NCBI RefSeq assembly: GCF_003334305.1
Contig: NZ_QOWS01000002.1
Reading direction: 5' to 3' (one strand)
DNA length: 64,000 nucleotides
Origin: Escherichia coli
Lineage (GTDB): Bacteria > Pseudomonadota > Gammaproteobacteria > Enterobacterales > Enterobacteriaceae
In this document: in pieces, positions 61,089 to 64,000 of the stretch
Position numbering within the stretch: the stretch's first letter is position 1
Layout: each line of letters begins with the position of its first letter
Position numbers: made by a program

Positions 61089-64000
61089 GCTCGGGAACCC
61101 CACCACGGGGTAATGCTTTTTACTGGCCTGCTCCCTTATCGGGAAGCGGGGCGCATCATATCAAATGACGCGCCGCTGTAAAGTGTTACGTTGAGAAAAA
61201 TGAACTGGTTGCGTAATTTTCATCCGTAACGGATTAAAGGTAACCAGTTATTTTTGCTGGCGATTAAAGAATAATCGTCCGATTACCGTAAACAAAGACG
61301 CGCTGTGCCAGTACTTTGTATAGCGCACGACTTAAGACGTTTTTCTCGACGTCACGACCTGCGCGCATCATATCTTCAGCTGTGTAGGTATGATCGACAT
61401 GAATAACGTCCTGCATGATGATTGGGCCTTCGTCCAGATTGTCATTCACATAGTGAGCGGTTGCGCCAATAATCTTCACACCACGTTCATAGGCCTGGTG
61501 ATAAGGACGTGCGCCGATAAACGCAGGCAGGAATGAATGGTGAATATTGATGATTTTATTCGGGAAGCGTGCCACAAATTCCGGCGTTAATACCCGCATA
61601 TACTTCGCCAGCACCACATAGTCAGGTTGATAAGCATCAATGGCGTCCGCCATCTTTTGATCGTGCTCGTTGCGGCTTAACCCTTCATGGCTTACCAGCT
61701 CAAACGGAATATCAAAACGCTCAACCAGAGAACGTAAAGTATCGTGGTTACCAATAACTGCCGCGATTTCGACATCCAGGCCGCCGTAATTGGCTTTCAT
61801 CAACAAATCGCCAAGGCAATGCGCTTCTTTAGTGACCAGAATCACTATCCGGCGACGACCGGCAGGATTCAGCTCACGCACGGAGCCTTCTGGCAATGCG
61901 CTATCGAGATCCGCCAGCAGGGTGGAATCATTAAAAATCCCTTCCAGTTCCGTGCGCATAAAAAAGCGCCCGGTACGGTGATCAACAAATTCATTGTTCT
62001 GTACGATATTTAACTCGTGCTTGTAGCAAATATTGGTAATACGTGCGATCAGACCTTTTTGGTCCGGACAAATAGTACGCAGAACTTTACGTTGGAGTGA
62101 ATGCATTGCTGGAAAAACCTTGTTGAGAGTGTTTGCTAAACCGTACCGTCAACCATTATTGGCCGCAGCACTTTTTAAATTTTTTACCTGAACCACAAGG
62201 GCAGGGATCGTTGCGACCAAACTGCGGACGTGTACCGTCAATATAGTACCATTGACCGTTTTCTTTCAAAAATCGCGAACGTTCAATTATTGCACCTGTT
62301 TTACCACCTTCGGTAAATCGAGCAACAAAACTGACAAATCCGATATTGTCGGCGTCCTGCCAACAATGTTCAAATACGGTCAATCCCAACCATTCAGTAT
62401 GCGCAAATCCGGCCATCAATTCGGCACGTAACGCCGCTGCTCCACAAGAGGGATGCCAGGTCTTTATTAAATAATCTGCGTCTTGCATCACAAAAGCGCA
62501 GTAACGCGAACGCATGAGATGTTCTGGATCAGGTGCAACCTTTTCACCAGACACATAAGGGTGGCAACATAGGCTATACTCGACAGCACTACCACAGGGA
62601 CAAAGCTGAGACACAAATAATCTCCCTGGAAACAATAACGGCGTATTAACCGCCTGAGTAGCACTATGTTAACCGAGCAGTAGCGATGTGGCTACGATTG
62701 CATTCCAGGGGAATCTTGCGGGAATAATGAGAAAGATAAAAATAGGGCTGGCGCTGGGATCTGGCGCGGCGAGAGGTTGGTCGCATATTGGCGTTATTAA
62801 TGCGCTAAAAAAAGTGGGTATTGAAATTGATATCGTTGCAGGATGTTCAATTGGTTCGCTGGTGGGCGCGGCCTATGCATGCGATCGATTATCTGCGCTG
62901 GAAGATTGGGTAACCTCTTTCAGTTATTGGGACGTTTTACGCCTGATGGATCTCTCCTGGCAGCGCGGTGGGTTACTGCGCGGCGAGCGTGTCTTCAATC
63001 AATACCGCGAAATAATGCCGGAAACAGAGATCGAAAATTGTTCCCGTCGCTTTGCGGCTGTTGCCACCAATTTAAGTACGGGACGTGAATTATGGTTTAC
63101 TGAAGGCGATCTCCATCTTGCTATTCGCGCATCATGCAGTATTCCAGGACTCATGGCACCTGTTGCACATAACGGCTACTGGCTGGTTGATGGAGCAGTC
63201 GTTAACCCAATTCCTATTTCCCTCACGCGTGCATTGGGGGCTGATATTGTGATAGCGGTTGACCTGCAGCACGATGCTCATTTGATGCAACAAGATTTGC
63301 TCTCCTTTAATGTCAGTGAAGAAAATAGCGAGAATGGTGATTCTCTGCCGTGGCATGCGCGTCTGAAAGAAAGGTTAGGCAGCATAACGACACGTCGGGC
63401 GGTGACAGCGCCAACGGCAACAGAGATTATGACCACTTCTATCCAGGTGCTGGAGAACCGCCTTAAAAGGAACCGCATGGCAGGTGATCCGCCCGATATT
63501 CTGATTCAACCTGTTTGCCCGCAAATATCTACGCTTGATTTCCATCGCGCGCACGCTGCCATTGCGGCCGGACAGCTGGCAGTGGAAAGGAAAATGGACG
63601 AACTTTTGCCGTTGGTACGCACCAACATTTGACCAGAATTTTTATCTACACTTAAGTTAATTCTGACAGGCGCAGGTGGCAATAGCATGCCACTATTGAG
63701 TAAAGCCAGTCAGGGGAGAGAACATGACGCAGCCATTGGTCGGAAAACAGATTCTCATTGTTGAAGATGAGCAGGTATTTCGCTCGCTTCTGGATTCATG
63801 GTTTTCCTCATTGGGAGCGACAACGGTACTGGCGGCTGATGGGGTGGATGCCCTTGAGTTGCTGGGAGGTTTCACTCCAGACCTGATGATATGTGATATC
63901 GCGATGCCACGAATGAACGGGCTTAAACTGCTGGAGCATATACGTAACAGAGGCGACCAGACCCCAGTTCTGGTGATATCTGCCACTGAAAATATGGCAG

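Follow-up and report, generated by a model that had tools for sequence, protein, structure and literature searches.

What does a small bacterial protein do that carries a SecA-type metal-binding motif at either end? This question is raised by ychJ, a gene in a 64,000-nt stretch of the Escherichia coli chromosome (NZ_QOWS01000002.1; hereafter the window). The original prediction had placed ychJ at positions 62156–62614, between purU and rssA, and had quoted both termini of its product; our translation and the RefSeq annotation agree with this exactly. The product scored 293.9 bits against the NCBIfam equivalog NF002449 (cut-off 141), aligned over residues 1–152, and matched the Pfam model PF17775 (Table 1), which bears out the proposed membership in UPF0225. 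All but two of the 5426 complete E. coli genomes (5424) contain a match to the 2.5-kb purU–ychJ–rssA stretch, several of them at 100% identity, and the chromosomal placement of ychJ in K-12 (purU–ychJ–rssA–rssB) is found in the window too. We conclude that the locus is an ordinary E. coli core gene, ychJ, of the YchJ family (UPF0225). The original prediction had also called its function unassigned, which no longer holds. A publication of 2020 describes both motifs and reports the metal content (10.1101/613315), and a function of the Salmonella orthologue was reported in 2026 (PMC13377102); gene, motifs, metal content, structure, and function are all already in the literature. According to the main text of the 2026 study, Salmonella YchJ senses H2O2 and represses rssB, which lies two genes away (Wang et al., Nat Commun 2026; PMC13377102). 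Judging from the sequences of both proteins and loci, we lean, by a small measure, toward the view that YchJ has in E. coli the mode of action described for Salmonella.

Each terminus of YchJ carries, as the original prediction had held, a copy of the SEC-C metal-binding motif of the SecA type. Both matched PF02810 in a domain search, and their cysteine pairs align to that model. Residues 132–151 are identical to the zinc-binding peptide of E. coli SecA (1SX0) at 16 of 20 positions, which include the non-ligand residues G-R-N-D, G-S-G, and K-K-x-K; a previous study gives 73% identity between the C-terminal domain of YchJ and SecA 878–899, and describes the second CXCXnCC motif at the N-terminus (10.1101/613315). 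The N-terminal segment alone matched SecA peptides weakly (E 0.2–0.3), yet with its cysteine ligands in register. In the six-frame translation of the window (127,996 residues), the loose pattern CxC-x7–12-C[CH] occurred six times, twice in ychJ, and only these two matches read CPCGS. When the residues of YchJ, 11 cysteines included, were shuffled 200,000 times, at least two pattern matches arose in a fraction of 2e-5. One could still suppose that the cysteine pairs are a chance resemblance or do not bind metal, given that the N-terminal match is the weaker one (E 5.7e-6) and faint against SecA peptides by itself. However, both copies pass the Pfam SEC-C model, the shuffles speak against coincidence, the ligand positions are conserved across phyla (with Cys or His at position 150), and zinc was found at the N-terminal site in the crystal (main text of PMC13377102) and 1.3 Zn per protein was measured (10.1101/613315). 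This explanation is effectively refuted.

The two copies are not equivalent. The basic face by which SecA contacts SecB (KKxK with a flanking R-N) is present in the C-terminal copy as K144, K145, K147, K148, R134, and N135. In the N-terminal copy, positions 10–15 are variable and non-basic and this face is absent, in agreement with the published statement that the N-terminal copy lacks the SecB-binding residues (10.1101/613315). Compared with the SecA domain (1SX0, 1TM6, 1OZB), the C-terminal motif has the same CxC-x8-C[C/H] spacing, serine, aromatic residue, KKxK face, and flanking GRND, whereas the N-terminal motif shares the ligands, proline, glycine, serine, and aromatic residue but has lost the basic SecB-contact residues. 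Moreover, SecA carries one motif on a translocation ATPase, while YchJ carries two on an NTF2-like domain.

The structure prediction called for by the original prediction gave a well-defined fold. The AlphaFold2 (AF2) model of E. coli YchJ, built on an alignment of 123 homologues, reached a predicted local distance difference test score (pLDDT) of 96.8 and a predicted template modelling score of 0.90, with a pLDDT of 96–97 in the C-terminal motif. Both motifs adopt a common secondary-structure signature, consisting of a bridge, seven residues, another bridge, one helical turn, and the CC pair. Crystal structures of Salmonella YchJ are available in the PDB (9L6B, 9VXG), and Foldseek superposed the model on 9VXG with a template modelling (TM) score of 0.97 and a root-mean-square deviation of 0.7 Å over residues 1–130. 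The next matches (E 1e-11 to 1e-12) were 2I9W (Psychrobacter Psyc_2064) and 2JQ5 (Rhodopseudomonas RPA3114), which are also related to YchJ in sequence (E ~1e-18 each) and belong to the same family and fold; 2I9W has both motifs, whereas 2JQ5, with 128 residues, ends after the NTF2-like domain.

With regard to metal, the crystal structure of Salmonella YchJ contains zinc at Cys5/7/16/17 (main text of PMC13377102). Cranford-Smith et al. (bioRxiv 10.1101/613315; JBC 2020), for whom the function of YchJ was then unknown, found that the E. coli protein co-purifies with 1.30 ± 0.17 Zn per protein and trace Fe, and that stripping with EDTA leads to aggregation (10.1101/613315).

The conservation pattern reinforces the distinction between the two copies. 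A HMMER search of 1.84 billion cluster representatives retrieved 2298 clusters at E ≤ 1e-10, and among the 150 best representatives (clusters at 50% identity) 132 had both motifs, the remainder being mostly fragments. In addition, 123 full-length homologues were aligned that had been chosen for having both motifs, so that the invariance of the cysteines is partly by construction; the invariant columns are C5, C7, C16, C17, R37, E111, F115, C138, C140, K145, K147, and C149. The N-terminal motif retains only its ligands and the structural residues P6, G8, S9 (103 of 123), and an aromatic position 13 (Y, F, or L in 120 of 123), and it always ends in CC. The C-terminal motif additionally retains R134, N135, G141, S142 (122 of 123), G143, and the basic face K/R144-K145-F/Y146-K147-K/R148. 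At its last ligand, residue 150, 95 of the homologues have Cys and 28 have His, and the same alternation occurs within SecA, where E. coli has CH (KQCHG) and B. subtilis CC (KNCCGR). Such an exchange is as expected for a metal ligand. Together with the measured zinc and the high model confidence, it suggests that the C-terminal site is metal-loaded when reduced.

As presented in the main text of PMC13377102, H2O2 converts Salmonella YchJ into a reversible, Cys149/150-dependent disulfide dimer, and the evidence for repression comprises electrophoretic mobility shift assays (EMSA), biolayer interferometry, rssB-lacZ repression, chromatin immunoprecipitation with quantitative PCR (ChIP-qPCR), and the phenotypes of C149S/C150S and of arginine and lysine mutants. 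In the mechanism that we propose, YchJ is a 152-residue cytoplasmic protein whose NTF2-like core (residues 29–127) lies between two metal knuckles, both Cys4 sites of the SecA type. The one at the N-terminus (C5, C7, C16, C17) would be a non-basic structural zinc site packed against the core, and the C-terminal knuckle (C138, C140, C149, C150) would be the active part. In the reduced cell, the latter most likely holds Zn or Fe, like the near-identical SecA domain. Under peroxide stress, its thiolates would be oxidized and an intermolecular disulfide would form through Cys149/150; the resulting dimer would display two KKFKK patches and could bind DNA at the rssB promoter. With less RssB adaptor, RpoS would escape ClpXP, and RpoS-dependent antioxidant enzymes would rise.

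The C-terminal switch is probably a metal-thiolate switch rather than an oxidation of free thiols. A parallel may be seen in the zinc-thiolate switches Hsp33 and RsrA, in which oxidation of a Cys4 or Cys3His site to disulfides alters the oligomeric state and activity; it is suggested by the Cys/His alternation, the measured zinc, and the H2O2-induced disulfide dimer. The comparison concerns the mechanism only, as YchJ has neither sequence nor fold kinship with these proteins.

Can this function be transferred to E. coli? Salmonella enterica YchJ (STM14_2121) is an orthologue with the same length of 152 residues, both motifs, and the same rssA–rssB and purU neighbors. As a reference for mainstream Salmonella, we rebuilt the protein from the PDB chains and P0012 and used locus L083, which has the gene order hns–galU–rssB–rssA / ychJ–purU in common with E. 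coli. The two proteins are 80% identical; 31 of 152 residues differ, mostly in the NTF2-like core, whereas the C-terminal tail is identical at 21 of 22 positions. The residues on which dimerization and DNA binding are reported to depend in Salmonella (R112, R114, R134, K144, K145, K147, K148, C149, and C150) are the same in both, as are C138 and C140. The rssA–rssB spacer differs at 16 of 91 positions (75 of 91 identical), and its rssB-proximal part is identical at 63 of 69. Furthermore, a peak of sigma-S RNA polymerase was detected by chromatin immunoprecipitation sequencing in the ychJ/rssA spacer of E. coli, with a transcription start site mapped for each gene (PMC4447067), which places ychJ itself within the RpoS circuit in this organism.

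Another genome labelled Salmonella enterica (GCA_050507695.1, locus L002, YchJ P0070) was rejected as a proxy for S. Typhimurium, as its YchJ is 74% identical to the E. coli protein compared with 80% for the mainstream form. This record is a divergent lineage or mislabelled. It has an AsnC-type regulator and an EamA transporter between purU and narI.

Several points weigh against the repressor function, either in Salmonella itself or in its extension to E. coli. The experiments on peroxide dimerization, DNA binding, and rssB repression were performed in Salmonella only, as far as the main text of PMC13377102 describes them. There, the affinity for DNA is weak, with a dissociation constant (Kd) of 16–64 µM by EMSA and 8.3 µM for a 24-mer; the models of the dimer and of its DNA complex are computational (ColabFold, HDOCK, molecular dynamics); and no comparison with unrelated DNA is contained in the main text or in the figures as described by their legends. 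Non-specific DNA binding is a concern, because the DNA-contacting patch is a basic surface shared with the SecA and YecA domains, where it serves for contact with SecB and ribosomes. The same text takes the C-terminal cysteines to be free thiols, a view that sits uneasily with 1.3 Zn per protein and with the Cys/His alternation. The solved chain that matches our model ends at residue 131, leaving the C-terminal motif outside the experimental structure, and an NTF2-like fold is unusual for DNA binding.

The sequence of the reported 24-bp palindromic operator is absent from the main text and methods of PMC13377102, and we scored the self-complementarity of 24-mers instead. In the 300 nt upstream of rssB, no 24-mer of either E. 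coli or S. enterica had more than 7 of 12 self-complementary pairs, with shuffled sequences typically reaching 7–8. When the scan included the ychJ–rssA spacer, in E. coli as well as in two Salmonella loci, the highest-scoring 24-mer had 7–8 of 12 pairs and was no better than shuffles. The repeat search carried out alongside revealed no inverted repeats of at least 8 nt. Only overlapping 6-bp inverted repeats, GTGGCA/TGCCAC and CAATAG/CTATTG, were seen, at 63676–63698.

The distribution of the family also argues against rssB as a general target. In a scan of one genome per species, full-length homologues were found in Enterobacterales, Vibrio, Pseudomonas, Acinetobacter, many Desulfobacterota, Nitrospira, Treponema, Bacteroidota, Acidobacteria, Verrucomicrobia, Campylobacterota, and Fusobacteria. 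Among 54 genomic homologues of full length, drawn from many phyla, 52 carried both motifs. Comparison of 55 loci showed that rssB adjoins ychJ in Enterobacterales only; two-motif homologues without adjacent rssB occur in Spirochaetota, Bacteroidota, Acidobacteriota, Nitrospirota, Verrucomicrobiota, Campylobacterota, and Desulfobacterota. Repression of rssB can therefore not be the function of the whole family. Apart from purU, rssA, and rssB in close relatives and a generic response-regulator cluster at scattered distances, no conserved neighborhood was detected in these loci.

A different role for the C-terminal knuckle is suggested by its resemblance to SecA. It may serve as a metal-folded module that docks to SecB and/or the ribosome, in which case YchJ would be a ribosome- or Sec-associated accessory factor (a chaperone, a SecA competitor, or a metal- or redox-sensitive modulator) and the effect on rssB would be lineage-specific, indirect, or secondary. 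The identity to the SecA metal-binding domain reaches beyond the ligands, and R134, N135, K145, and K147 show little or no variation among the diverse homologues, which points to a conserved macromolecular partner. The presence in many phyla with no conserved neighbor gene would suit a universal partner, for instance the ribosome. The second small E. coli protein that ends in a SecA-like domain is YecA (AscA), in which this domain is joined as a single motif to a UPF0149 partner, whereas YchJ has two motifs and an NTF2-like domain. The C-terminal tails of YecA and YchJ show 77% identity, and Zn and some Fe co-purify with each protein (10.1101/613315). The domain of YecA binds SecB (Kd ~150 nM) and 70S ribosomes, and YecA has direct binding data for both partners (10.1101/2020.07.21.215244). 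Weak support comes from the observation that deletion of ychJ in E. coli raised secreted hEGF (human epidermal growth factor) by 28% (PMC9039743).

Binding of YchJ to SecB or to ribosomes has, however, never been reported in the literature, where such binding is demonstrated for SecA and YecA only, and there are family members without the C-terminal motif, namely 2JQ5 (128 residues) and those described by NF003262 and NF002502, which match residues 3–128 only. SecB is largely confined to Proteobacteria, and homologues of YchJ occur well outside them. In addition, genetic screens gave no Sec phenotype (10.1101/613315), and the in vivo ChIP-qPCR, reporter, and point-mutant data from Salmonella favor a transcription factor (main text of PMC13377102). 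On balance, we regard docking as the main role as possible but rather unlikely. A related and similarly tentative idea is that repression of rssB was acquired recently in enterobacteria, or stems in part from the behavior of a very basic peptide in vitro, and that YchJ was ancestrally, and is throughout the family, a stress-responsive factor whose metal-loaded, redox- or iron-sensitive C-terminal knuckle docks to the ribosome, and to SecB where present, like the domains of SecA and YecA.

The function might also reside in the core. The cone of the NTF2-like domain could bind or turn over a small molecule, as its limonene-epoxide-hydrolase, ketosteroid-isomerase, and SnoaL relatives do, with the knuckles as structural or localization appendages. 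R37, E111, and F115 do not vary, L33, M34, R35, S113, and W122 hardly do, and these residues lie in the first helix and third strand, outside both motifs. Foldseek also superposed the model, more distantly, on limonene epoxide hydrolase, ketosteroid isomerase, and the CaMKII-association-domain-like 3GWR, and its matches to NTF2-like enzymes reached a TM score of ~0.5. In some members the C-terminal motif is missing although the core and the N-terminal one are present, and in Enterobacterales and Psychromonas ychJ lies 7–49 bp upstream of purU. Yet no ligand or activity is known, the identity to the enzymes is just 15–19%, R37 and E111 can equally be explained as a buried structural salt bridge, and purU adjoins ychJ in only 4 of 55 loci from a few gammaproteobacterial lineages. 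We consider a conserved catalytic or ligand-binding role improbable and retain the peroxide-responsive control of rssB as the preferred function in E. coli.

Two further observations were made on the family. Pseudomonas cedrina (L033) has two YchJ-like genes in tandem on the same strand, at 8001–8450 and ~513 nt downstream. Two larger proteins, P0201 (451 residues) and P0247 (340 residues), end in a complete YchJ module with both motifs, and their N-terminal extensions measure ~300 and ~170 residues, respectively.

The features of the locus are compiled in Table 1.

Table 1. Features of ychJ and its flanking intergenic regions, in window coordinates
Feature	Residues	Position	Strand	Basis and remarks
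ychJ coding sequence	1–152	62156..62614	-	GTG start, 152 codons plus stop; RefSeq 'YchJ family protein'; K-12 b1233
N-terminal SEC-C motif	1–19	62558..62614	-	Pfam PF02810, E 5.7e-6, model positions 1–19 of 19; ligands C5, C7, C16, C17, plus S9 and Y13; non-basic
NTF2-like middle domain	29–127	62234..62530	-	Pfam PF17775 (YchJ_M), E 4.5e-31, model positions 1–99 of 99; invariant R37, E111, F115
C-terminal SEC-C motif	134–151	62162..62215	-	Pfam PF02810, E 1e-10; ligands C138, C140, C149, C150; S142; basic K144 K145 F146 K147 K148
Shine-Dalgarno sequence AGGGAG		62622..62627	-	7 nt upstream of the ychJ GTG start; read from the sequence
ychJ–rssA divergent intergenic region		62615..62726	.	promoters of both genes; annotation, sigma-S peak, block conserved between E. 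coli and Salmonella
rssA–rssB intergenic region		63633..63723	+	most likely site, assumed by orthology, of the promoter of rssB to which Salmonella YchJ is reported to bind

According to the RefSeq annotation, the local gene order is narGHJI, RtT/tRNA-Tyr, purU(-), ychJ(-), rssA(+), rssB(+). A longer open reading frame with a TTG start (159 residues, extending to 62635) was rejected because the placement of the Shine-Dalgarno sequence, the annotation, and the MSQ N-termini of orthologues and of the solved Salmonella protein speak against it. The description of ychJ as a gene that sits alone without an obvious partner could not be upheld: purU begins 49 bp downstream on the same strand, and the reported target rssB is two genes away. 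Given this short distance, ychJ is probably not a solitary transcription unit. A sigma-70-like site (TTGAAA, 18 nt, TATATT; 10 of 12 matches) was observed at 62240–62269 on the minus strand, inside the 3' part of ychJ and ~130 nt upstream of the purU start, and no terminator-like site was found in the 49-bp gap. Because of this site and the gap without terminator, purU may be transcribed both together with ychJ and from a promoter inside ychJ.

On the other side of the gene, the mapped start sites are 1288400 for leftward ychJ and 1288329 for rightward rssA (PMC4447067). As the coordinate for ychJ is the higher one, the divergent transcripts would overlap head-to-head by ~72 nt, and the rssA leader would begin within ychJ. 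The predicted overlap corresponds to approximately 62588–62660 of the window, covering part of the spacer and the first ychJ codons; this mapping of coordinates is an estimate. A weak hairpin with a T-rich run after it (GGCGGTTAATACGCCGTT) is present in the leader of ychJ at 62637–62654 on the minus strand, just upstream of the Shine-Dalgarno sequence, and the divergent Salmonella locus L002 has a GGCGT/ACGCC hairpin at the aligned position. An Rfam scan of 60500–64000 returned RtT and tRNA-Tyr alone, and no RNA element in or beside ychJ.

The window contains one tRNA-Tyr (61020–61104) and one RtT element (60842–60973) on the minus strand between narI and purU, compared with two tRNA-Tyr genes (tyrT, tyrV) in K-12 MG1655 and three, with two RtT elements, in strain KSC64. 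These differences are copy-number variation of a tandem tRNA/RtT repeat. In some E. coli assemblies (P0038, P0042, P0045, P0047, P0050), the ychJ product is shortened (130–138 residues) or matches ~77% of the query (153 residues).

Taken as a whole, the locus brings together two published views of one 20-residue motif that are in tension, docking to SecB and the ribosome on the one hand and a peroxide-sensing, DNA-binding dimerization switch on the other, in a family that is far wider than the RssB–RpoS pathway attributed to it. Resolving this tension would clarify both the link between oxidative stress and RpoS stability in E. coli and Salmonella and the role of SecA-like domains on other proteins.

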